Source: Candidatus Hydrogenedens sp.
GTDB taxonomy: Bacteria > Hydrogenedentota > Hydrogenedentia > Hydrogenedentales > Hydrogenedentaceae
Assembly (NCBI GenBank): GCA_049968235.1
Contig: JBMFRC010000003.1
Coordinates: 203,463 to 267,462, forward strand
Direction: 5' to 3'
DNA length: 64,000 nucleotides
The stretch's first letter is position 1. Every line of letters begins with the position of its first letter. A program made the translations under genes and the position numbers. The notes under the pieces were generated by a model. It did not search any database, was not told where the DNA came from, and saw only the letters and a program-made list of their open reading frames with translations. Shown here in pieces: positions 14,301 to 64,000 of this stretch.

Positions 14301-16601
14301 ATGACCATGCGAGGATATTTTATCCCTTTAATTTTTCTCTTATCCTTTACAGCAATTCTTCCTTCTTTTGCAGGCGAGAAAATTAAATATCAATTAACAA
14401 TTAAGAGAGTTGGTGATGAAGGGATTGTAAATCCTGGAATTGGGACTTTCTACTATGATGCAGGGACCACTGTTTTTCTCAACGCTATTCCGACTGCAGA
14501 CTGGGCATTTGACCACTGGGAAGGTGCTGTTTCAGGGACAGACTTATTTACTCAAGTGCTGATGGACAAACCAAGGACAGTTACCGCTGTTTTTGTACCA
14601 GCACAATGGAGGCTGACCATTGAGCATAGTGGGAATGCTACCGGTACAACTTTCCCTGCTCCCGGGGTCTATGGATTTTTAGATGGTAGAACGGTAGGAG
14701 TTAGCTCTGGCACTTCGCCGGGTGTATATTTTGGAGGCTGGAGGGGTGATGTGATAAGTAATGAAGAATTTGTACAGGTGGTTATGAATTCTGACAAATA
14801 TATAAATGCACGATTCACGGATACAGGGTATACCCTTAGTATAAGTGTAATTGGTCCGGGAGGAACAACCCCCTGGCAAGGGACAGTGCATCGGTATTCA
14901 GAAGGATTATCTATATCTGTTGTATCTTATTCAACAAATCCTTTATGGCGGTTTGACCATTGGGAAGGTGATATAGGCGATAACGAATCACGATATTATA
15001 TCCTGTTGCAACTAACTATGGACCAGGACCGAAATATCACCGCGGTATTCATTGAGAAGCCATATTATAACCTTACATTGGAAATCGTTGGCGAAGGAGG
15101 TGTTTCTTTTCAACAGGGCTTTGATGACCCCGTAACTCTATCCACAGGTATCCATGAATTTAGCATTATTGAGTGGACCTATATTCGATGTGAAAAAATA
15201 ATCACTTCACCCACATGGAAATTTCTCCACTGGGAAGGAGATTTTGGTGATACATTGCCTACCTATTATCGATGTGCTTTCTCTATGGACAAAAACCGTT
15301 ATGTCCGTTGCATTTTTACCAATTTGACACAGGTCCCTGATGTTATAGGAACACCTCAAAATATCGCAGAAACGACCATTATAAATGGAGATTTGATAGT
15401 CGGTAACATTACAGAAATATGTAATGATAATTATGTATCAGGATATGTAATAGACCAATATCCACCTGCAGGGACTACTGTAGAAATAGGAAATTCTGTA
15501 TCACTCTGGGTTTCCACAGGACCTTGTCCTGTATCAGTGCCAAATCTTATCGGATTAACCATAGAAGAGGCAGAGAATGCAATAAATAGTGCCGGCTTAA
15601 CGCTGGGTAATGTGATGAACTCGTGTAATGATGAAATTGGGATGGGAATAGTATTTGGTCAAAATCCATTAGCGGGAGAGCAATTATTCCCCGGTAGTTC
15701 TGTAAATATTGAGGTATCTTCAGGACCCTGCCCGGCGGAAGGGATTATAGAAGGTGAAGGGATGGAGGAAGGTATGCCCGAAGGAGAAGGGACACCCGAA
15801 GGAGAGGTATGCGTCTGGATGGGAGCTTGTCCTAACTTTAGTTATGAAGGAATAAAAATGGGATATTTTGTCGGACAATTATGGAATAACTGCGATATTA
15901 ATCAATCCGAAATCCCCGATGCATGGGAGATAGAAATTGTTAAGTATTTGCTGTGCAATCCTCAGGGAATATGGGAGGATAAATTTATTTGTAAATTTAT
16001 TGAAAATTATAATATTCTGGCAACGGAGTCTTTATTCCATACAACTTATTATTCCTTCCGGCATATTTTAACAGGACTTCTTACTATAGGAACCAATATG
16101 GATATTTTAAGAAACACTTTCTTTCTAACCAAAAACTATTATCCATTTGAATATCCATCGGATAATTTCCCGTTATTGCCGGATGCGGATATTGATAATG
16201 ATGAATTAACTAATTATGAGGAATACCTCAGGGTAGTCGAACTTAACGGAAGTAACAATGCATTTATTCGGAACATTTTCAATCCTTCGCCTGTTCCTCC
16301 CATTCACTCCGCAGATATAAATCAGAACCATAGAATAGAGTTGACAGAACTACTTCGCATTATTCAATTCTTTAATTCTTCAGGATTCCACTGTGAAAAT
16401 GGGACAGAAGATGGTTATGCGCCGGGTTATGACGAGAGTTTCGATTTTTCATGTGAACAACACACGGCGGATTATTTGCCCCACGATTGGCATATTAGCC
16501 TTGAAGAAATTCTAAGGATGGTTCAGTTTTTCAACGCAGATGGCTATCAGATGTGTCCCTTTATTTCTGAAGATAGTTACTGTCCTATTTTCTCTGAGTA
16601 A
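14301..16601 (+). CDS. large secreted multi-domain surface protein: InlB-B-repeat-like modules, two PASTA domains, E/G-rich acidic linker, C-terminal dockerin/EF-hand-like module
   Basis: Signal peptide. About four repeats of the '(F/W)DHWEGD...TAVF' type (Listeria-Bacteroides repeat-like). PASTA-like 'VPNLIGLTIEEAENAINSAGLTLGNV...' appears twice. 'EGEGMEEGMPEGEGTPEGE' linker. C-terminus has 'DADIDNDELTNYEEY', 'DINQNHRIELTELLRIIQFFN' and 'ISLEEILRMVQFFN'. Confidence 0.6.
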   Translation: MTMRGYFIPLIFLLSFTAILPSFAGEKIKYQLTIKRVGDEGIVNPGIGTFYYDAGTTVFLNAIPTADWAFDHWEGAVSGTDLFTQVLMDKPRTVTAVFVPAQWRLTIEHSGNATGTTFPAPGVYGFLDGRTVGVSSGTSPGVYFGGWRGDVISNEEFVQVVMNSDKYINARFTDTGYTLSISVIGPGGTTPWQGTVHRYSEGLSISVVSYSTNPLWRFDHWEGDIGDNESRYYILLQLTMDQDRNITAVFIEKPYYNLTLEIVGEGGVSFQQGFDDPVTLSTGIHEFSIIEWTYIRCEKIITSPTWKFLHWEGDFGDTLPTYYRCAFSMDKNRYVRCIFTNLTQVPDVIGTPQNIAETTIINGDLIVGNITEICNDNYVSGYVIDQYPPAGTTVEIGNSVSLWVSTGPCPVSVPNLIGLTIEEAENAINSAGLTLGNVMNSCNDEIGMGIVFGQNPLAGEQLFPGSSVNIEVSSGPCPAEGIIEGEGMEEGMPEGEGTPEGEVCVWMGACPNFSYEGIKMGYFVGQLWNNCDINQSEIPDAWEIEIVKYLLCNPQGIWEDKFICKFIENYNILATESLFHTTYYSFRHILTGLLTIGTNMDILRNTFFLTKNYYPFEYPSDNFPLLPDADIDNDELTNYEEYLRVVELNGSNNAFIRNIFNPSPVPPIHSADINQNHRIELTELLRIIQFFNSSGFHCENGTEDGYAPGYDESFDFSCEQHTADYLPHDWHISLEEILRMVQFFNADGYQMCPFISEDSYCPIFSE

Positions 16602-16697: not shown

Positions 16698-17858
16698 ATG
16701 AAGAATAAACTGCTTTTTTTATGCTTATTTATTTCCCTGATAAATATGCAGTCCGCTATTCACGCGGAAGTGATTTTTGAAAAAGATTTCAAAACAAGTA
16801 GTATTCCTGAAACAAAAATTATCCGTTACAGAGTACTAAGTCATAATGACGAAAAAAAGGGCTATACTTTTTCATTTCTGGGGAAAGTTCTGAAAGGACA
16901 GGTTACTATTCAGATTGAAGATACTGAGAAAAACATTATTGAAAAAAGGGAAATTCCCGCTTTTTCTTTACTACACTGGCATTTTACATTGTCCGAAGAA
17001 AAAGGACTGGATAATATTTATATATCCTTACACCTAAAGGATATGGTTGGAAATATTTACTCCGTAGTTGTTCCCACTATACAAAGCCAGCAGGTTTACA
17101 TTGTTCAGGGGATAGTCGTATCTATGAACCTCCTTTTATTTTTCGCATGTATATATATCATCAGAAGAAAATCCCTTTATCTCTCATGGTGGGGTTGGGG
17201 AATACTGCTTGGGATTTCTGCAAAGGTTCTCTTTTATATTGTTGATTATATTGACTTTTTACCCACCACACTATTAATCAATTCTACAACCCTTGAAGAT
17301 GACCTTTCGGATTATCTTTTCTCTATCTATATCTCTTTACGGGAAACGGCTATCCTTTTCTTGATATTAGGCTTCTTCTCAAGCAGGTTATTATCGTTAG
17401 AACATAAAAAACAAATGGCTATAAGCATTTCTCTGGGTATTGCTCTTATATTCTTAACTTTCACCATTTTTGAGGGAGTATTACGAACATTTCAAATTAT
17501 GCCATCATTAAATATATCTCCCTATTCCCTGGCTCTCTTTTCTGTGCAGATAGCACGAACACCCTTTTATTACTTCCTCATTCCATTAAAAAATATAATT
17601 CTATTGATATTATGGTTTAGTGCTTTTTATCTAGCACTATCCGGTGCAATACAGGCAGAAAGAAGAACGGTAATTCGCGGAATATTAATATTTATCTTCA
17701 CAGAAGCAGTGCTCGTCTATTTTGAAAATTCCTATTTCATCTATCATAACTCCAGTTGGTGGGTTGTAGTTTCGGTATTAGTAATTAGTTTTTTCCCTGT
17801 GTTCATTTACAAATTCAAAACGTTTATATACGCCGAACCATCTCCCATCAAAAAATAA
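16698..17858 (+). CDS. membrane protein with N-terminal extracytoplasmic domain plus 7-8 TM helices (7TMR-DISM-like, no cytoplasmic output domain)
   Basis: Signal peptide, ~120-aa periplasmic domain, then seven to eight hydrophobic helices. The protein ends shortly after the last TM. Confidence 0.45.
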   Translation: MKNKLLFLCLFISLINMQSAIHAEVIFEKDFKTSSIPETKIIRYRVLSHNDEKKGYTFSFLGKVLKGQVTIQIEDTEKNIIEKREIPAFSLLHWHFTLSEEKGLDNIYISLHLKDMVGNIYSVVVPTIQSQQVYIVQGIVVSMNLLLFFACIYIIRRKSLYLSWWGWGILLGISAKVLFYIVDYIDFLPTTLLINSTTLEDDLSDYLFSIYISLRETAILFLILGFFSSRLLSLEHKKQMAISISLGIALIFLTFTIFEGVLRTFQIMPSLNISPYSLALFSVQIARTPFYYFLIPLKNIILLILWFSAFYLALSGAIQAERRTVIRGILIFIFTEAVLVYFENSYFIYHNSSWWVVVSVLVISFFPVFIYKFKTFIYAEPSPIKK

Positions 17859-52536: not shown

Positions 52537-55500
52537 TCATTTTGGAGGACCGGTTGTTGAGCCAAGCACACCCCCACCTAATTTGAGCAAATCCACCAAT
52601 ATTTTACGCGGTATATCAATAACACGGAAGGCTTCTGTTGTAATTTCCGCTGCACCACTGACCAGTGTAACTACGAGGGGGGGTAATTCTTTGACCTGTC
52701 CCTTAGGGCTAAATGAAGGTCCATGAACACGGAAACCTAATTGTATCGGATTCTGGATAATCTGATGTCCACGAATATTAAAACTATCTCGAATTACGGC
52801 TATTTGCGAAGCCAGTTGGGGTGATAATGTTACAGATAAATCATAATCCATATCGCCATCAATAATGAACTGTCCACTACCATTTATCTGCAAGCCTTCT
52901 GAACGGAATTGGACATTCGGAGTTTTGACGAGGTCTTTTTCCATCTGGACATCGCTTGTAAAGGTATAGAAGGGCAGGGTTGCGGGAAAATTTGTAGGGG
53001 ACATTTCCGGAGCAAATCGGCTGAGAAAAAGGTCAGTCTTCACTTTCCCATTAACTACCTGGAAGGACCCTTTTCCGGATAGAGTATTGGAGTCATCCAA
53101 ATCCAGTGAGTATTCTACATTCCCTGTGCAATTACCTTCCATAGCCTCCGGCAGATTTAGATGGCGAACAAGATAAATAACGGGAATGTTTTTCCATTGG
53201 GCTTTCAAAATACTCAAATTTTCAGGAGAAGTAACGGAATAGCTACCTTCTAATGTTCCATCTCCAACCTGAGCAGAAAAACGGTCTAATCCTGAAATTT
53301 GTGGTTTGTCATAAGCAATTCCCTTGAAGGAAGTTCCTTCCCATGGACTCATGGTTATCTTATCTGCATTTAAGGCAAAGGTCCAGTATTCCGGTGCTGA
53401 AGGGGGTTCTTTTTTTCGTATTCGTTCTGCCTCTGCTTCTTCTTTTGAACGTAAAGGTAACAACCATTTCACCCCGATTGGAGGGATATTTGCTTCTTTG
53501 GCAGTGATTGTGAAAGTGCGTGTGCGATTATTCAGGTCTCGTTCATCAATAAACGCCTGGAGTGATATGCCTTTTGCTTCCAGAGGAATGTCTGTTCCCT
53601 TCGCAAGGAAGGAAGCCCAATCAATATCCATTCCAATCCGCATGGTTTCCCCATATTTTTCTGTTCGTGTCTTCTTCTCCCAGAGGAAAGAACCATTTGT
53701 TGCGATGCCCCCTCGACCTTCATACGGGACACGCAAACACTTGCTTGCGGTATTAACATCTAATGCTTTTGTAGTTACATTTACTCTTCGCAGATTGAAT
53801 TTCTTATTGTAGTAAGCATATTCAAACTTTGCATCCAATGGTGTCGATTCCAGCAAAGCGGAACCTTCTATTGTTAATGTTTTTTGAGGAACGAAAGTAA
53901 TATTTAAATTAGGGATTGTCGCCCCGATACCGGAATGTTTACGAAACCACCACTGGAAACTTACATCAGCAGAGGTTAATTCTGCATTTAATTGGGTTGT
54001 TATTTTTTCCGGGTGATAATCTATAACTGCCTGAAAAGTGGCACTTCCTGCTAAAGAGACATCATCATCTTCTTTTAAAAAGGGTAGTTTTTCCAGAGTA
54101 TTCAATGTTCCACTAATGGTAAAGTTCCCTACTTTCTCTGCAACTTTATAAATTCCTTTTGCTGTAATGGGGGAATTGTTATAAATCCCTGACAACGAAT
54201 CTACCGTTATTTTATCTGTATCCAGAATACAGGTTGCAGAAATTCCATCTATTTTGACCTTCAAAGGAGCATACTCAATAACACCTTCTTTAAGGACTAA
54301 TGTCCCTTGTGGTAATTTGCCTGCTGTTGCCCAGCCTACTTTCACCAATTCCAGTTTAGCACGGAGTGAAGGGAGTTCCGGACGAGTTGGTGTAAATTCT
54401 AATGTTCCATTGGTTACATCGGCTAATGCCTCCAAAATAGGTTTAGAAAATGGCCCCCGAATCCCCAAACGCAAATTATTTAACTGGTCAAAACTTAATA
54501 CAAAATCGCCATAAGGTTTTATCTGTTGTTGTGTTAGAGAAGTAATAATATCCTCCAGCGGTATTTTACGAACTTCCAATGTTAGGTCTAATTCAGGAAT
54601 AGGTTTATCAAGGAAGAGCAACCCTGAAAGACTTCCATCGAATTGCGGAGAAGTAATATCTGCTGTAGTGATTCGCAAACGCTTTTCCGATAACTTCAAA
54701 TCTGCCAGAGCCATAATTTCTCCCGTTATTGTTTGAAAAGGGATATCTGGCGATTTAGCTTTGATATTTTCAAAAGGTGCTTCTACCGCAATAATCAATG
54801 TCTGATTGGGGTATCCTGCCACGCGCAACGAAGGCGTTATAGAACCTTCCGGATACAGGAAATCAGAAAAAGGAAGAAGTTTTTCCAACTGTGTTAACAG
54901 GATCTTATCACTGGAGGCTCGAACATCAAAATCTTCGATAGAACGAAATCGGACATCCAGATTGATTGTATTTTCTTCTGGAATCTCCGGCAGATAAGAA
55001 ACCGTCGTTTCTACTTTTGCTCGGAATTCCGAAGAATCTGCGAAACGATAACAGTCAAATTGTAATTTTTTCAACTGCAATTCATGCTCCGGAATAAGTC
55101 CAAAAATAGAAATATTATTCCTTTCTCCAACAACACGAAACGAAATATCCTTCCAATCTATGGAAGTGTTTCCCTTTGAAGATTTTCGTATCTCTTCCCA
55201 GAAGGATGGGTCTTCAATATTTACTTTTATATCCGACTGGCTAACTTCAATACGGTCGAAACTCCATTCACCATAAAGTAAATTAATCCAGTTTACATGT
55301 ACTATTGTGCGTGGAATGGTCATATCTGCCTTCATTCCCTTATAATCCACACGAAGGGAAATGTCATCAATTCGAAGCCCTCGTAATCCATTGGGGAGAA
55401 TTCTACCTACAGAAAGTTTCCCATTTACTTTTTGGCTTATTTCTTGCTCAAAATTTGACTTCAATGCTAACAGTTTATACCGAGCATACAGGAAGCCCCC

Positions 55501-55548
55501 GGATAATAAAAGGGCAAGTAAGATAAAAAGTATGGAAATAAGACGCAA
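52537..55548 (-). CDS. AsmA/TamB-like outer-membrane biogenesis family protein
   Basis: 1003 aa. Single N-terminal TM anchor followed by a long predominantly beta-sheet periplasmic region. N-terminus resembles AsmA. Confidence 0.45.
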   Translation of the reverse strand: MRLISILFILLALLLSGGFLYARYKLLALKSNFEQEISQKVNGKLSVGRILPNGLRGLRIDDISLRVDYKGMKADMTIPRTIVHVNWINLLYGEWSFDRIEVSQSDIKVNIEDPSFWEEIRKSSKGNTSIDWKDISFRVVGERNNISIFGLIPEHELQLKKLQFDCYRFADSSEFRAKVETTVSYLPEIPEENTINLDVRFRSIEDFDVRASSDKILLTQLEKLLPFSDFLYPEGSITPSLRVAGYPNQTLIIAVEAPFENIKAKSPDIPFQTITGEIMALADLKLSEKRLRITTADITSPQFDGSLSGLLFLDKPIPELDLTLEVRKIPLEDIITSLTQQQIKPYGDFVLSFDQLNNLRLGIRGPFSKPILEALADVTNGTLEFTPTRPELPSLRAKLELVKVGWATAGKLPQGTLVLKEGVIEYAPLKVKIDGISATCILDTDKITVDSLSGIYNNSPITAKGIYKVAEKVGNFTISGTLNTLEKLPFLKEDDDVSLAGSATFQAVIDYHPEKITTQLNAELTSADVSFQWWFRKHSGIGATIPNLNITFVPQKTLTIEGSALLESTPLDAKFEYAYYNKKFNLRRVNVTTKALDVNTASKCLRVPYEGRGGIATNGSFLWEKKTRTEKYGETMRIGMDIDWASFLAKGTDIPLEAKGISLQAFIDERDLNNRTRTFTITAKEANIPPIGVKWLLPLRSKEEAEAERIRKKEPPSAPEYWTFALNADKITMSPWEGTSFKGIAYDKPQISGLDRFSAQVGDGTLEGSYSVTSPENLSILKAQWKNIPVIYLVRHLNLPEAMEGNCTGNVEYSLDLDDSNTLSGKGSFQVVNGKVKTDLFLSRFAPEMSPTNFPATLPFYTFTSDVQMEKDLVKTPNVQFRSEGLQINGSGQFIIDGDMDYDLSVTLSPQLASQIAVIRDSFNIRGHQIIQNPIQLGFRVHGPSFSPKGQVKELPPLVVTLVSGAAEITTEAFRVIDIPRKILVDLLKLGGGVLGSTTGPPK

Positions 55549-56984: not shown

Positions 56985-58391
56985 ATGAAACATTTTGACG
57001 AGGAAATTGTTTCGGGGAATGTTCTAAATTCCCTATGGAAATTGACCTGGCCATTGGTTCTATTAAATCTAATCAATGGAATGCATGGGTTTATTGACCA
57101 GGTGTTGATAGGTCATTTTGTTCCGGGCAAAAACAATGAGGGTAATGCGGCGGTGGGTGTGGCATGGCAGTTGTTTATTGTAATGGTGGTATTAATTGCC
57201 TCTATTTCTCATGGGATGAATGTATTAATAGCGAGATATGCCGGGCGACAGAACCGAAAAATGGTGAACACAATATTCTTCGATGCCTTTTTAACCGGGG
57301 CTTTTTTTCTGGTTGGAATTGTGGCCCCTTTAGGATATATTTTCAGTCCACAACTATTACGATTTATTGGTGTTGAGGAAAGGGTTTATCATCTATCACT
57401 TCCTTATTTGCGACTTCTATTTGTATTCAACTGGACTTTGTTTTTGATGATACTGCTTACAGGGGCATTTCAAGCAGCGGGGGAACCCAAATTAGCGTTG
57501 ATGCTAAACATATTGAATGCGGGACTGAATATTGTTATCAGTTTTGTCCTTATTACAGGATTGGGTATTTTCCCTTCATTCGGTGTTATAGGGGCAGGGA
57601 TAGGAACAGTTCTGGCACCAGGAATTTCTTTACTACTGGCGTTCTATTTAATGTTACGAGGAAAGACATTAATACAACTCCCTTCCCAATGGCGCTGGTT
57701 CCCCAATTTCCATGTTTTGAAAATGATAATCCGTGTTGGGTTACCGACAGGGATACAGGGGGTTGTTCTGAATATTGCGGGGGTCCTTTTAATCAAATAT
57801 ATCAGTAGCATGCCCAATAGCACGGCGGGACAGTCCGCTTATACTATTTGCTACACTCAATTGTTCTCAATTGTAACATGGACATCTTTTGGTCTTCGTT
57901 CCGCATGTTCTACTGTGATGGGGCAGAATATAGGCGCCGGCAATCCGCAACGGGGCAAAAAAGCAGTTCAGGCGGGTGCTTATTTAGGAGCCTTATGGGG
58001 AGCTACGATTGGAGTTATCTTCGTTTTCTTTCCAACACCTCTGCTGTATATATTTAATGCTCAATCCGAATTGGTTTTGGAATATGGAAAGGCTTTACTG
58101 CAATGTCTGGCTTTTTCAGGGATATTACTGTCTGCAACTCTTGCTATGACAGGTGGAATTCAGGGTTCCGGCGCAACGCGATTACCTATGATAATTGCGA
58201 TGGTATCACAGTTCGGAGTGCTGTTAGGAGTATGTGAAGTGCTGTATCTATTAGGGATGTTAAATATTTATCGAATCTGGTATGTCATTTTACTTGCCCA
58301 TTTTGTCCGTTATGTGTTGACATTGACGATATTCAAAACAGATGGCTGGACAAAAACAAGGGTAGAAATTTCCCCACAATTCGAAAATTAA
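56985..58391 (+). CDS. MATE family efflux transporter
   Basis: 468 aa, 12 TM helices. Paralogous in topology to the gene at 1641..3041. Confidence 0.75.
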   Translation: MKHFDEEIVSGNVLNSLWKLTWPLVLLNLINGMHGFIDQVLIGHFVPGKNNEGNAAVGVAWQLFIVMVVLIASISHGMNVLIARYAGRQNRKMVNTIFFDAFLTGAFFLVGIVAPLGYIFSPQLLRFIGVEERVYHLSLPYLRLLFVFNWTLFLMILLTGAFQAAGEPKLALMLNILNAGLNIVISFVLITGLGIFPSFGVIGAGIGTVLAPGISLLLAFYLMLRGKTLIQLPSQWRWFPNFHVLKMIIRVGLPTGIQGVVLNIAGVLLIKYISSMPNSTAGQSAYTICYTQLFSIVTWTSFGLRSACSTVMGQNIGAGNPQRGKKAVQAGAYLGALWGATIGVIFVFFPTPLLYIFNAQSELVLEYGKALLQCLAFSGILLSATLAMTGGIQGSGATRLPMIIAMVSQFGVLLGVCEVLYLLGMLNIYRIWYVILLAHFVRYVLTLTIFKTDGWTKTRVEISPQFEN

Positions 58392-58393
58392 AG

Positions 58394-61300
58394 TTATGGA
58401 CTTTTCTGAACGCTAAATGTGAATTTAGGACCGAAAAGAGCGCGATTAAAACTCTCCATAGTTAATTGCACGGACGGATTGTTATTCACGGGAATTTCAA
58501 AGTGGAAAGCGGTTGTTTCTCCGCGTTTTAGCGATTTATTTAACGGGACTTGTTGCTGTTTTTGTCCGCTACATATAAGTAAAGAGACATTACCTTCCGA
58601 CAAGTCTTGTTTTGAACCTGCAATCCATTCAGCCTCCCCTAAATTGGTGCATATCACCCGTAACTTTATTTTCTCTGTTTCCTTCGGCAATCGGATTATA
58701 TCGCCTTTATAAACAACTTTTTCCTCTGGATTATTTATCCATACGACAGAGTCAAAAAATGCATCTAAATATTTAGGGGGATTGCTACTGTTATAGGGGA
58801 CATTACCTACCGCTAATAAAGGACAATTTCGTGAATTTGTTCCTGTTGCTTCACTTACTAATTTTGGATTTTTCCCTTCTTCTATCAACCGCCAGAATGT
58901 TTCTTTAATATTGTTATAAATACCATAAACACCCATCGAAGTCTTATCACGGTCAATTTTTATTTCGCAATCATAAGGCTGAAATTTCTGTTTATGAAAA
59001 ATTTTTGTATGTTCCTTTATAACCGTAGTAGCGGGACGATAGGTCCCATCCGGATTAATAATTCCATAATCACTTTTCTCGTTTACACGATAGCCACCGG
59101 GATACCACCAGAAATAGACCCCGTCAGAACCACTTCGGGATAGCATTTTATAAAAATCCGTGAAAAAGTCTGCCTGAAACTTTAATGCACGCTGAGTTTG
59201 TTCCTCATTTTTTCGATAGACACTATATCCTATCTCTGCCCAGATTAAGGGTATATCGGGATTGCAAAATGTGCCATATTTTACCTGAAACCAGCCCGGT
59301 TTGACCATCTCCCAGTTCCCAATTCTACCATAGGCTTCCGGCTCGAGTATATCTACTGCCTGCGACAAGTAATACCAATCATACGGAAGTGGATTTGCCC
59401 AATTGTTGGTAGGATTGGAGCCTTCTGTCATACGGAAACTTACCGCATGATTTGTATCTACAGAACGGACTAATGTCCTTGCTCGATTGTAATATTCGTA
59501 CAGGAGTGTATCCAGAAAACGGCGATACGCACATACCATGACGCGCCATTCGCCATCGTTTGTCATCATCTTATCGGTGGGGTTTGTGATATTCCCATTC
59601 TCATCTCGCTGTATGGGATATTTCCAGTCCTTTTCTGCATTTTCAATAGAGCCATATCGTTCTGTTACCCATCCCGCCCATTCCTTGTCCCAACGTTTTC
59701 TCCCTTCGTGTCCCGGAAACATAGGTTCCCATGCTAAATCATAAGCGAACACCTCATCATGCTCCGATAACCGATAATACTCTATCATTTCCTTTATTTT
59801 ATCCCACTCAAAGTCAAAGGGTGTGCCAGGTCGCAAAGATAAATTGACCTTCAATCCTAACCGGTCTGCACGATACAACAAATCAAGCAGGTTCTGGTCT
59901 TTCATTACATCGTGATACTGAAATACACTGATGGAATTCAGCCCTATTCCCGCAATCCGTTCTAAATCGCGTTGAATAACCCATGGATCGTATGCTTCTG
60001 CTCCCATCCAATATTCGAAATAATGCCACCACTCTACACCTATTCCTGAGGAAGGCATATAGTTTACCCCATGCGGACACCAACGCTTCCCACGATAGAT
60101 AAAATCACCCCGCTTCACCTTGACAAATTCTTTTTTTGTTCGTGGTTTCCAGCAATTTAACTCGTGATATACATAATCTTTGGTTTCCCCATTTACAATA
60201 AGATAACATTCCACCCTGACATTGTCCCCTGCAATTTGCGGATAAGGGATACTTTCTTCAATTCGAGATATTTGCTGTTTGCCCGGTTGGATAGGCAAAT
60301 CATCTTTCCATAATACTTTGCCACTGTTACCCCGTAATAGCAATTGTATATCTGCATTCGGATAATCCGCATCAGATGTCATAAGAACAGTAGCCCCCAT
60401 CGGTAACTCCTGGTCCGAAAAAACAGTGTAATAAGAACATCCCCCATCAACAAAAAAAACACCCTCCCTTAATTTTTTAATCCATTCGGAAAAGTAGTTA
60501 ACAAATTGTTCGCATAAATACCATTCTGGGTCCTGAACAGCAAAACAGGCTTGAACAGAATTTTTATAAGGTTCATTATTGTATATCATCATTGCGGAAA
60601 TAGTCCCACGATAATCCTTTCCCTTGCCCCAGGCATGCATTAACGGGACCCATCGCCATGAACGACGCTTATCAAAACCTCCACCACGAGGACGAGGATG
60701 AATTAATAAAAATTGTTTAGGAACAGGCATCGTCACTTCTTTTAGAGCTAACTCTGTATCCGTTGAAACGAAATGAACATTATTTGATGTATAAAATTTA
60801 TATTCCGGATAGAACAGTTCTAATTTAGGTAGATCTGTCGTCTGTAGGAGTATTTGATACTGCGGTGTCATCGGTGCAGTGCCCAATCCTGCAAACCAGA
60901 ATTCATGCCTGCCACCCGCGATAGGCGAATGGCTCATTGTTAAGCCTATATAAACCTTAACTGCGTTTTGTGGGTTAAATGTCGTTCTTGAACGCGAAGG
61001 AGATTCCCACAACTTAAATCTATCCGGTGTCAGTACATAAAACTGCCAGTCTGTGCTTAATGGAACAGATGTAATCCATCGCGAACCATCTTTCTCTCGC
61101 CATTCAACAGTGAGATAATCTGTTGTCTTAGTCCCTCTGGCAAAAAAAACGGTAACTTGATGATTATCCGGAAACGGATTTTCCAGAGCGGGAGACGCAA
61201 AAATATCCCAGCCTTTCATATCTATAATAAAAGCATGAAAGCCGTGGAAAGTTTGGTTCGGGATAATATCGTTTAATGGCTGATATTCAAAAACGACCGG

Positions 61301-61789
61301 CGATTGCATGTTATTGCTTTCCCGTTGCCAATCTTTCACATCCCCTTCCGCAAAAGAAAACAAATGGGGAAGTAATGAGGAAAAATGTTCCTTAACAAAT
61401 TGTATAGGTTTTACACAACGTTTGCCATCCCATATAAAATCATTATTCCAGAGTGGTGCCCCAAACACCAGTAAATCACCACCTCGTTTTATGAATTCCA
61501 TAATTACAGGAGCGGTCAAAGCAGGTAAAGAAAAACCAGGAACAACTACCAGCAAATCTGTACTATTGAATACATCTGTGTTAGGAATAAAATCCTCTAT
61601 TCGAATATTCTTTGTTTGATATAAATCATTGTTCAAAATAGTAGAAATCTGTTCTCCAATAGAATTCCATTCGGAACTATTATTTGTATACAAAATAAGG
61701 GCATTCGGAATATTCTCAGTAGATAATGCCTCCCTGGATGATAGAAGGAAGAAAAAAAGTATCAAAGATAATCCCAATAAATACCTCAT
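58394..61789 (-). CDS. large secreted protein with central TIM-barrel glycoside-hydrolase-like (GH5/GH42-like) region
   Basis: Signal peptide. 'WCPHGVNYMPSSGIGVEWWHY...LERIAGIGLNSISVF...LLDLLYRADRLGLKVNLSL' resembles (beta/alpha)8 cellulase-superfamily hydrolases. Confidence 0.4.
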   Translation of the reverse strand: MRYLLGLSLILFFFLLSSREALSTENIPNALILYTNNSSEWNSIGEQISTILNNDLYQTKNIRIEDFIPNTDVFNSTDLLVVVPGFSLPALTAPVIMEFIKRGGDLLVFGAPLWNNDFIWDGKRCVKPIQFVKEHFSSLLPHLFSFAEGDVKDWQRESNNMQSPVVFEYQPLNDIIPNQTFHGFHAFIIDMKGWDIFASPALENPFPDNHQVTVFFARGTKTTDYLTVEWREKDGSRWITSVPLSTDWQFYVLTPDRFKLWESPSRSRTTFNPQNAVKVYIGLTMSHSPIAGGRHEFWFAGLGTAPMTPQYQILLQTTDLPKLELFYPEYKFYTSNNVHFVSTDTELALKEVTMPVPKQFLLIHPRPRGGGFDKRRSWRWVPLMHAWGKGKDYRGTISAMMIYNNEPYKNSVQACFAVQDPEWYLCEQFVNYFSEWIKKLREGVFFVDGGCSYYTVFSDQELPMGATVLMTSDADYPNADIQLLLRGNSGKVLWKDDLPIQPGKQQISRIEESIPYPQIAGDNVRVECYLIVNGETKDYVYHELNCWKPRTKKEFVKVKRGDFIYRGKRWCPHGVNYMPSSGIGVEWWHYFEYWMGAEAYDPWVIQRDLERIAGIGLNSISVFQYHDVMKDQNLLDLLYRADRLGLKVNLSLRPGTPFDFEWDKIKEMIEYYRLSEHDEVFAYDLAWEPMFPGHEGRKRWDKEWAGWVTERYGSIENAEKDWKYPIQRDENGNITNPTDKMMTNDGEWRVMVCAYRRFLDTLLYEYYNRARTLVRSVDTNHAVSFRMTEGSNPTNNWANPLPYDWYYLSQAVDILEPEAYGRIGNWEMVKPGWFQVKYGTFCNPDIPLIWAEIGYSVYRKNEEQTQRALKFQADFFTDFYKMLSRSGSDGVYFWWYPGGYRVNEKSDYGIINPDGTYRPATTVIKEHTKIFHKQKFQPYDCEIKIDRDKTSMGVYGIYNNIKETFWRLIEEGKNPKLVSEATGTNSRNCPLLAVGNVPYNSSNPPKYLDAFFDSVVWINNPEEKVVYKGDIIRLPKETEKIKLRVICTNLGEAEWIAGSKQDLSEGNVSLLICSGQKQQQVPLNKSLKRGETTAFHFEIPVNNNPSVQLTMESFNRALFGPKFTFSVQKSP

Positions 61790-61833
61790 GAATTTATCCT
61801 TTTTTATACAGAAGATATAGTATAATTATATTA

Positions 61834-61935
61834 GATTTTACAATATAAGCCCTTTGAACATATAAAACCTGTAATGGGGAGGATATCAGCACTTGAAATG
61901 ATTTTACAATATAAGTCCTTTGAACATATAAAACC
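61834..61935. promoter_or_regulatory. tandem 36-bp direct repeat (35/36 identical) in the divergent promoter region upstream of the surface-protein paralog
   Basis: 'gattttacaatataag(c/t)cctttgaacatataaaacc' at 61834..61869 and 61900..61935; ends 20 bp before the ATG at 61956. Confidence 0.4.
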
Positions 61936-61955
61936 CAAAACAGAGGATATTGAAA

Positions 61956-64000
61956 CATGTGGGGGAAAAACTATACGGAATGGCTGGTCATACTCTTACC
62001 GGCTCTTTTTATAACATCAACATTATTGGCACAGGAAAAAATCCTTTCAGGAACAAGCCTGTATGCACAGGTTGATAGAAATAAAATAAAAGCAGTCATT
62101 GATGATTTACCTAAAACAACATTCCGATTAACAATAACTCATAGTGGGGATGCTACAGGGACTACTTTCCCGGGTCCGGGTGTTTATGAATATTCCTCTG
62201 GACAAACAGTAGGGATTAGCGTTGCAACCTCCGATGGCGTTTATTTCGGCGGTTGGTCCGGTGACTCAGCAGGTTCCAGTGAGTTTATACAGGTGGTAAT
62301 GGACCGTGATAAAACGGTGGATGCCCGATTTACCAGTACGGGACACATACTAAATATTTATATTGAAGGGGAAGGAGGAACAACTCCGGGTCCCTTCGGA
62401 AATCCACATCGGTACTCAAGCGGTTTATATATCGATATAACAACTTACCAAACAAACCCATTGTGGCGATTTGAACACTGGGAAGGTGACATTGGTGAAA
62501 ATGACCCCAGAAGTTATGTTATCTATAACCTGCTAATGGACCAGGACCGTAATATAGCCGCAGTGTTCATCGAAAAACCATATTACGACTTAACAGTAGA
62601 AATCATAGGAGAAGGAAATGTCTCTCTACAGGAAGGTTATGAAACCCCCATCATTCTAACCCCAGGTGTGCATACATACTCCTACCTCGAATGGACATAT
62701 ATCCGCTGTGAAAGAATAGAAACAAACGAAGATTGGAAATTTCTTCGATGGGAAGGGGACTTTGGGGATACCTTGCCAACATATTTCAGATGCAGTTTCT
62801 CAATGGACAAAAACAGATACATCCGCTGTATATTTACCAATAATACTCAGGTCCCTAATGTGGTCGGTATCACTCAATCTAGTGCAACTACTGCTATTAC
62901 CAAAGCATGGTTAACTGTCGGGGAAATTACCGAGATTTGCAATGATGAATATCCTTCCGGGTATGTTGTCGACCAGGACCCGCCCGCAGGTACAACAGTA
63001 GAAATTAATACTCCCGCAGCACTCTGGGTATCCTCCGGTCCCTGTCCAGTACCCGTCCCAAATGTAATGGGGAAAACTCAAACAGAAGCGGAAGACGACA
63101 TCACCTTAGCAGGATTAATTTTAGGAAATGTATCCGAGCAATGTAATGACGAAGTGGAACAAGGTAAAGTAATTAACCAAAACCCTCAACCCGAAGAATT
63201 AGTGCCACCCGGTAGTCGCGTAGATATTGTGCTTTCCTCCGGTCCCTGTCCTATCACCGTGCCAAATATTGTCTGGCAATTTCAACAGGATGCAGAAACG
63301 ATAATAGCCAATGCGGGATTAGCCGTAGGGATAGTAACCGAGCAGTGTGATGACACCATACCAGATGGCAGAGTAATAAGCCAGAATCCATACGCCGGAA
63401 CACAGGTTCCACCTGGCACAGCAATCAACTTTACCGTTTCCACCGGTCCGTGTCTGGTAACTGTCCCCAATGTGGTGCAATATTCACAAACAATAGCAGG
63501 ACAAATACTTACATCCGCAGGACTAACCGTTGGCAATATTAGCCTGCAATGCCATAATAGTATTCGGACTGGACTCGTAATAAGCCAATCCCCATCAGCA
63601 GGCGAAAAAGTGCTACCAAACAGTGCTGTAGACCTTATCATTTCCTCCGGACCATGCATAGAAGGCTCACCCGAAGGAACCACAGAGGGCGAAGGTTTTG
63701 TTGAAGGGACTCCCGAAGGAACACCTGATGGTGAAGGGACAGTTGAAGGAACAACAGAAGGTAATGCCGAAGGTGAAGGCACCGTCGAAGGTACAACGGA
63801 AGGTATATCCGAAGGTAGTGCTGATGGCGAAGGTACCGTGGAAGGAGCAGTAGAAGGCGAAGGGACTAACGAAGGAGCCACTGAAGGTGAAGGTATGGCA
63901 GAAGGTGAAGGAGAAACACCATCACATAGTGCAGACCAAAATGGAGATTGGCAGATAAATCTACCCGAGTTATTACGCGTGATACAATTTTTCAATATAC
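61956..64000 (+). CDS. paralog of the 14301..16601 surface protein, 3' partial: InlB-B-repeat-like modules, four PASTA domains, E/G acidic repeat, start of dockerin-like module
   Basis: 'MWGKNYTEWLVILLPALF' signal. 'FEHWEGDIGENDP...AAVF' and 'FLRWEGDFGDTLPTYFRCSFSMDKNRY' repeats. Four PASTA-like 'VPN(V/I).G...A...(L/I)...GL..G......C.D' units. '(T/A)EGEG' repeats. 'DQNGDWQINLPELLRVIQFFN' at the window end. Absent from the ORF track because it has no stop within the window. Confidence 0.6.

Follow-up and report, generated by a model that had tools for sequence, protein, structure and literature searches.

A modular PASTA and B-repeat protein of Candidatus Hydrogenedens with a divergent dockerin-like C-terminal module

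Tandem PASTA domains of ~68 residues, each with an alpha+beta fold and arranged as beads on a string, form the extracellular arrays of the PknB/PrkC/Stk1 kinases and of the penicillin-binding proteins PBP2x and PBP1. The InlB B-repeat/Flg_new_2 family (PF18998), represented in surface proteins of Listeria and Bacteroidota, comprises all-beta modules of ~75-90 residues with the motif W.F..WEGD...A.F. Type I dockerins (PF00404) consist of a duplicated loop-helix (F-hand) with the EF-hand ligand pattern in loop 1, and are mostly found at the C-terminus, where a flexible linker joins them to a wide range of secreted passengers in one genome. The EF-hand itself combines a 12-residue loop (D-x-[ND]-x-[DN]-x-x-[IV]-x-x-x-E) with a following helix. 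A further C-terminal element, the type IX C-terminal domain of Bacteroidota, is a conserved domain of ~80-100 residues that recurs on dozens of secreted proteins in a single genome of this FCB-group phylum; Hydrogenedentota belongs to the same group. To our knowledge, ligand binding has not been established even for many characterised PASTA domains, and we know of no cohesin in Hydrogenedentota.

In a stretch of 64,000 nucleotides from Candidatus Hydrogenedens sp. (the window), the target gene encodes a protein that shares features with each of these systems and departs from each. Its PASTA array resembles those of the kinases and penicillin-binding proteins, but is carried by a protein with no kinase, transpeptidase or membrane anchor, has a Cys pair in every unit, and lies between B-repeat modules on its N-terminal side and an acidic linker followed by a docking-type tail on its C-terminal side. 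One of its three B-repeat-like modules scores directly as an InlB B-repeat, and the third differs by a 12-residue insertion and three Cys residues. The tail module resembles the type I dockerins in having two loop-helix repeats, but these are ~50 rather than ~33 residues apart, a Cys-bearing hairpin comes after each of them, the second loop is non-canonical, and the passengers are not carbohydrate-active enzymes. Unlike an EF-hand, the module has no entering helix in the AF2 model, and position 6 of the loop is W in the target and not G. The type IX C-terminal domain differs from it in sequence and in fold (predicted as two helices and two hairpins in the module, for which Pfam and NCBIfam give no match to such a domain) and in position, as the module also occurs at N-terminal, internal and tandem sites.

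The target gene is a routine new member of known domain families and has already been deposited. Its tail module, on the other hand, occurs in about 3,000 protein clusters, has no Pfam or NCBIfam model of its own and labels a large part of the proteins secreted by an uncultured phylum. A family definition would improve the annotation of Hydrogenedentota genomes, and the module points to a candidate route for protein docking or sorting in the FCB group. The PASTA units at this locus represent generic extracellular building blocks, outside the kinases and penicillin-binding proteins. A literature search covering the module motif and Hydrogenedentes dockerins, PASTA and surface proteins returned nothing relevant.

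Domain architecture of the target protein

The target gene starts at an ATG at 61957-61959 (+), preceded by AGAGGA in the raw sequence, and the window holds the first 681 codons (the 5' 90%) of a gene for a 752-residue protein of a Candidatus Hydrogenedens bacterium. The first-pass annotation had placed this ATG at 61956, which is off by one and would set a frame full of stops. From the start codon, residues 1-25 (61957..62031, +) read as a signal peptide, MWGKNYTEWLVILLPALFITSTLLA followed by QEK, with an AF2 helix over residues 6-25. Cleavage would occur after residue 25, and no lipobox Cys is found in the signal peptide. Residues 26-54 (62032..62118, +) represent, by alignment and pLDDT, a disordered remnant of a lost first beta module. 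The pLDDT of residues 20-52 is below 50 in the AF2 model, and the remnant (~22 residues; 30-50) can be aligned with no more than the final strands of the first module in a paralog from the same window. Because residues 30-50 match only the end of that module, the first beta module has been deleted in the target; among its relatives it is intact in P0004, P0005, P0007 and P0008 and degenerate in P0002 and P0003.

Three InlB-B-repeat-like all-beta modules follow at residues 55-127, 128-206 and 207-298 (62119..62850, +), as delimited by Pfam, alignment and AF2. The Pfam model Flg_new_2 (PF18998) scores 32.4 bits on residues 59-127, above its gathering cut-off of 23.6. Alignment relates all three modules to one another and to the paralog's four, and AF2 run on the family alignment models them entirely as strands with a pLDDT of about 90.

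Four PASTA units, supported by Pfam, PDB and Foldseek matches, occupy residues 299-363, 364-431, 432-499 and 500-567 (62851..63657, +). The Pfam PASTA model (PF03793) matches the target in four stretches with 193.4 bits against a cut-off of 23.2 (E 4.9e-58), the PASTA part matches PDB sequences of Stk1/PrkC/PknB ectodomains (E 1e-15), and its Foldseek match is 3m9g (E 3e-15). AF2 predicts a helix and strands for each unit, and the coding region has a DNA periodicity of 204 nt. Two Cys residues with a spacing of 35 recur in every unit; the pair is conserved in the family and would probably form a disulfide. No kinase domain was matched by Pfam in the target, and the model for the Stk1/PknB PASTA kinase (NF033483) scores 209 bits on the ortholog P0002 against a cut-off of 450, over profile positions 363-563 only.

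The PASTA array is followed by an acidic E/G(T)-rich linker of 88 residues (63658..63921, +), recognised by its composition (25 G, 24 E and 14 T; 26 acidic and 0 basic residues) and a pLDDT of 22-47, with AF2 disorder over residues 568-657. Its DNA consists of imperfect 42/54-nt tandem repeats with 73-77% matches. The window then ends within the C-terminal module, of which the first 26 residues (HSAD-QNGDWQINLPE-LLRVIQFFNI), comprising an EF-hand-type loop and a helix, are encoded at 63922..64000 (+). The last residues quoted earlier, DQNGDWQINLPELLRVIQFFNI, are found at the C-terminal end of the target, and an AF2 helix begins there at residues 669-680. The first reading had called the product a surface protein, and the hallmarks of secretion are present in its signal peptide, adhesin-type beta modules and conserved Cys pairs; neither a beta-barrel nor a recognised outer-membrane export signal was found in the target.

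The C-terminal module and its distribution

In full-length proteins the tail comprises ~95 residues with the pattern HSADxNGDWxIxLxELLRVIQFFNxGGYHC...EDGYxPG...C.PHxSDYNPQDWxIxLSELLRLIQFFNxGGYHxC..GEDGYCPG. This module is an internal duplication: in each half an EF-hand-type loop leads into a helix (ELLRvIQFFN) and then a Cys-bearing hairpin (GGYHC...EDGYxPG). Among 49 full-length proteins, 12 columns of the family consensus (HSADxNxDxxIxLSELLRVIQFFNSGGYHC...) are invariant and 32 nearly so. AF2 applied to 119 relatives, with P0128 from the same contig as the modelled sequence, gives a pLDDT of 97-99 and predicts a fold of loop, 12-residue helix and beta hairpin, twice over. In loop 1 the EF-hand ligand pattern is canonical (D 95%, N/D 89%, D/N 95%, I/V 95% and E 100%), whereas loop 2, DYNPQDW, is one residue longer, has W in 99% and lacks ligands at positions 1 and 3.

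The last residues of the target had been read as a canonical dockerin-type loop-helix, and this reading holds in part. Loop 1 has the EF-hand/dockerin ligand pattern, a relative (P0134) passes the Dockerin_1 threshold at 27.2 bits against 22.9 with both halves of the profile covered, and solved dockerins are the top, though weak, structural matches. A Foldseek search with the module returned dockerins as nine of 25 matches and five of the first six, all weak (E >= 1.5, TM 0.41-0.51), and the 56 weak PDB sequence matches are nearly all EF-hand proteins aligned on the loop and the exiting helix. The tail of the target is, however, under every Pfam threshold, and the module has additional Cys hairpins and a non-canonical loop 2. 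For the ortholog and the conspecific protein P0384, no Pfam model reaches its threshold on the tail; the best is EF-hand_6 (E 0.07-0.11, with 0.11 for P0384), at 12.8-13.3 bits against 25, with the loop pattern present. Dockerin_1 gives no match on the tail at E <= 10 for the ortholog or at E <= 1 for the conspecific protein, and NCBIfam models match nothing beyond PASTA on the ortholog, leaving the tail without a model. Among the 119 relatives, EF-hand_6 matches 34 and Dockerin_1 matches three (E <= 0.01). Overall, a divergent dockerin/F-hand variant is the most fitting description of the tail.

A profile search with the module across 1.84 billion representatives identified 3004, 2509 and 1508 clusters at E <= 1e-3, 1e-10 and 1e-30, respectively. 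The match ends 1-3 residues from the protein C-terminus in about 138 of the 150 best matches; in the other cases (about 12/150) the module is internal (P0243, P0245), tandem (P0244) or N-terminal, just after the signal peptide (P0378). A scan of species-representative genomes yielded at least 557 confirmed copies, and at several loci two module-bearing genes lie side by side. The best 80 of these copies derive from 16 assemblies, with up to 17 from one assembly. By their record titles as given, which are not verified taxonomy, seven of the 16 are Candidatus Hydrogenedens/Hydrogenedentes/Hydrogenedentota, six are 'uncultured Nitrospirales' and three are 'uncultured bacterium'. The six assemblies titled 'uncultured Nitrospirales' carry orthologs of the target gene family.

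The passengers of the module are diverse. Among 49 complete proteins we found 65 Pfam families, most frequently PASTA (13), Flg_new_2 (9), surface Ig-like (8), CHRD (8), GLUG (6), LRR (4) and papain protease (2) domains. Most of 62 related proteins have an E/G-rich linker ahead of the tail module.

Proposed docking role of the tail and its alternatives

The most likely role of the tail is that of a surface or envelope docking tag. On balance, we favour the view that the target is a Sec-exported, non-enzymatic modular protein in which the tail serves as a dockerin-like docking tag and the PASTA/B-repeat part is displayed. The 752-residue protein would be exported by the Sec pathway via its signal peptide, secretion being predicted from that peptide, and its stalk would be made up of the three B-repeat-like beta modules and the four PASTA units, each of these stapled by a predicted disulfide. 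A long, flexible and strongly acidic E/G linker would join this stalk to the ~95-residue C-terminal module, an autonomous and probably Ca2+-stabilised docking tag that may act like a dockerin. Through the module, the passenger would be tethered to a receptor or envelope component shared with other passengers, leaving the PASTA/B-repeat part displayed as a spacer or as a binding array for a putative ligand. The repeat spacing of ~50 residues, the hairpins and the four Cys residues are foreign to dockerins and count against the dockerin-like reading, as do the sub-threshold Pfam scores of the tail and the ligands missing from its second loop. The host is probably a diderm.

More tentatively, and with a probability that we place well short of even, the tail may represent a phylum-specific, non-cellulosomal surface-display system. 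The module would in that case descend from the dockerin/F-hand fold, be stapled by disulfides and depend on Ca2+, and by it dozens of unrelated secreted proteins per Hydrogenedentota cell would be docked onto a putative receptor (a cohesin analogue or an envelope glycan), with PASTA arrays as the commonest cargo.

The main rival sees in the C-terminal module a signal for secretion or sorting that a dedicated outer-membrane export or attachment machinery would recognise and perhaps remove, by comparison with the C-terminal domain of type IX secretion in the related FCB-group phylum Bacteroidota. We consider this unlikely, although the position of the module within 1-3 residues of the C-terminus in about 138 of 150 best matches, its frequent recurrence within a genome on unrelated passengers, to which a flexible linker joins it, and the placement of Hydrogenedentota within the FCB group all fit such a signal. 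Curated models of sorting domains in Pfam and NCBIfam give no match to the module, its predicted fold is a helix and hairpin repeated twice and not a beta sandwich, and it has no hydrophobic or basic tail. Moreover, terminal signals are not expected at the N-terminal, internal and tandem positions in which the module also occurs, so that a binding module fits these positions better than a terminal export signal.

A role as a periplasmic, peptidoglycan-associated factor is somewhat more doubtful still. The PASTA units would then bind muropeptide or peptidoglycan, as proposed for PknB and PBP2x, and the tail would serve structure or oligomerisation in a Ca2+-dependent manner. Consistent with this role, the nearest relatives of the PASTA units are the ectodomains of PknB/PrkC/Stk1 and penicillin-binding proteins, the target has no lipobox, beta-barrel or recognised outer-membrane export signal, and the window also encodes a weak AsmA/YhdP-like protein that hints at a diderm envelope. 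However, other proteins with this tail carry extracellular or adhesin passengers (LRR, Ig-like, GLUG and papain proteases), an acidic linker of 88 residues together with beta modules of adhesin-like type points to a reach away from the cell, and the Cys pairs of the PASTA units are lacking in peptidoglycan-sensing PASTA domains.

Family history and completeness of the gene

The window contains a paralog of the target at 14301..16601 (+), deposited from the same contig as MGC8737725.1, which contains four beta modules and two PASTA units, together with an E/G linker of 24 residues, a Cys-rich insert of ~165 residues and a complete C-terminal module. The paralogy proposed earlier is confirmed by pairwise alignment: BLASTP with the translation of 14301..16598 aligns 406 aa at 61% identity (E 3e-176). 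This alignment lies outside the low-complexity region, and a second, offset alignment reveals internal repeats. The peptides that the first-pass annotation quoted from the two paralogs are found in the respective translations, and the differences that it described are likewise real, with four PASTA units in the target against two in the paralog (Pfam E 4.9e-58 and 5.5e-26) and an acidic repeat of 88 against about 24 residues. Pfam matches Flg_new_2 in both proteins and a dockerin model in neither.

Comparison of the region shared by the target, the paralog and their relatives resolves two main clades. The 4-PASTA clade contains the target and P0002-P0010, with identities of 63-92%, and the clade with two PASTA units and the insert contains the paralog, P0011, P0014, P0015, P0017, P0018, P0019 and P0021, with identities of 66-87%; members of different clades are 56-67% identical. 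Other subfamilies have fewer Pfam PASTA units or none, as in P0034, P0035 and P0037, for which none are listed. By these comparisons, each of the two architectures is an old orthologous group, kept across several species, and not the product of recent diversification.

The locus had been interpreted as part of a diversifying surface-protein family, with internal domains that expand and contract between paralogs. Taken further, PASTA units and E/G repeats would expand and contract rapidly, in the manner of antigenic or phase variation. Some of the variation in the family would suit this interpretation: PASTA number differs among subfamilies (four and two in the main clades, none in some), the E/G linker ranges from 39 to 125 residues among orthologs, and the state of the first beta module (intact, degenerate or deleted) depends on lineage. 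We nevertheless regard ongoing diversification as quite improbable. Each architecture forms its own clade that is conserved across several species, and the linker length is the sole part that varies freely. Furthermore, three conspecific assemblies differ at only 3/681 residues and have identical repeat numbers, and the repeats in the linker DNA are just 64-77% alike, which makes them poor substrates for slippage.

The target reading frame is open to the end of the window, as noted before, with 681 stop-free codons from 61957 to 64000, and it is missing from the ORF track because it runs off the end without a stop. An identical 681-aa product with the same initiator Met is available at NCBI (MGC8737762.1, 'PASTA domain-containing protein, partial [Candidatus Hydrogenedens sp.]') from a contig of 267,462 bp. 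The label 'partial' on a contig of this length places the truncation at, or at most 2 bases from, the contig end; the gene is thus truncated as had been described, but by the end of the contig itself and not merely by the window edge.

A conspecific contig, L084 (GCA_049971155.1), matches the window from 58215 to 64000 with 99.91% DNA identity and no gaps, and supplies the sequence beyond 64000 that the first reading had called for. It continues the frame for 71 further codons to a normal TAA stop, giving 752 aa, with no premature stop or frameshift beyond the window. The resulting protein, P0384, is a complete conspecific copy from a sister assembly (same 90% cluster) and is identical to the target at 678/681 positions; a third conspecific copy of the gene breaks within the E/G linker. 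A syntenic ortholog of 806 aa (P0002) from Hydrogenedens single-cell genomes adjoins the same divergent 1131-aa gene, and the orthologs of the target are full length. A pseudogene or genuinely truncated gene, as might be read from the lack of a stop codon in the window and from the NCBI label 'partial', has a negligible probability, since the collinear L084 finishes the frame with the conserved module and a stop, the orthologs are full length and this reading is already refuted for the conspecific genome.

Most of the best matches to the tail are short 'partial' proteins. We infer that this conserved region, present in multiple copies, is prone to assembly breaks, which would explain the frequent ending of these genes at contig breaks. 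P0128, an N-truncated fragment of linker and tail on the same 267-kb contig, was considered as the missing tail of the target and rejected, as the overlapping sequence differs (WKISLSELL against WQINLPELL).

Several other features near the target were also evaluated. A 237-aa open reading frame with PS repeats on the opposite strand (63282..63995, -) is an antisense mirror of the E/G linker and was discarded as an artefact. The 1131-aa syntenic neighbour was considered as a possible partner and set aside, as it has no Pfam or PDB sequence match that would link it to the target. No Rfam match was found in 61500-64000 and the scan for terminators near the target returned none, while a promoter scan gave 4 sites against 1.9 +/- 1.5 in shuffled sequences and is hence uninformative. 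Upstream of the gene, the 167-bp leader contains two copies of a 36-nt direct repeat at 61834-61869 and 61900-61935 (61834..61935, +), with a period of 66 and 97% identity, where none would be expected by chance. This pair is missing from the single-cell-genome ortholog and is present in the conspecific contig L084.

Cysteine pairs and envelope type

Each PASTA unit of the four-PASTA protein carries a conserved pair of cysteines with a spacing of 35 residues, located at residues 328/363, 396/431, 464/499 and 532/567 (window 62938-63657). These pairs are probably disulfides and, if so, would mark an extracytoplasmic variant of the PASTA unit; the PASTA units of PknB and PBP2x are not known to carry such a pair. 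An antisense ORF of 237 aa built of PS repeats (63282-63995, minus strand) mirrors the E/G linker and was rejected as a gene. Elsewhere in the window, a 1003-aa protein (52537-55548, minus strand) has matches to AsmA/YhdP that fall below threshold, and these hint that the organism has a diderm envelope.

The leader and the divergent neighbor

The divergent neighbor of the target gene (58394-61789, minus strand) encodes 1131 aa, including a signal peptide, and this arrangement is found in 3/3 assemblies examined (the window, loci L001-L003 and the conspecific contig L084); no Pfam family or PDB sequence match was obtained for this neighbor. The 167-bp leader separating the two genes contains two copies of a 36-nt direct repeat (61834-61869 and 61900-61935; 97% identical, period 66). 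As the flanks of both copies also share GAGGATAT...ATG, the leader appears to have undergone an old duplication. L084 has the repeat and the single-cell-genome ortholog lacks it; neither an RNA family (Rfam over 61500-64000 gave no match) nor a promoter was assigned to the repeat.

The two-PASTA paralog

In the paralog at 14301-16601 (plus strand), a cysteine-rich insert of approximately 165 residues (15804-16300) lies between the E/G linker and the tail and contains a further acidic DxDxD loop (DADIDNDELTNYEEY). This insert is without a Pfam family and is kept across the whole 2-PASTA clade. Immediately 3' of the paralog is a gene (16698-17858, plus strand) whose 386-aa product has a signal peptide, is predicted to cross the membrane many times and is likewise without a Pfam family.

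Fragmented relatives and source assemblies

A third protein bearing an E/G linker and the tail (P0128, MGC8737668.1) is encoded outside the window on the same 267,462-bp contig and is truncated at its N-terminus. Many relatives, too, are found in public data as "partial" fragments; the E/G linker and tail therefore appear to systematically break short-read assemblies. Several assemblies rich in the C-terminal tail module (L006, L007, L010, L012, L025 and others) are titled "uncultured Nitrospirales bacterium", and these also hold orthologs of the target's gene family. This label looks doubtful because, among the best 80 copies of the module from species-representative genomes, the remaining labeled assemblies are Hydrogenedentota; three others are titled only "uncultured bacterium".
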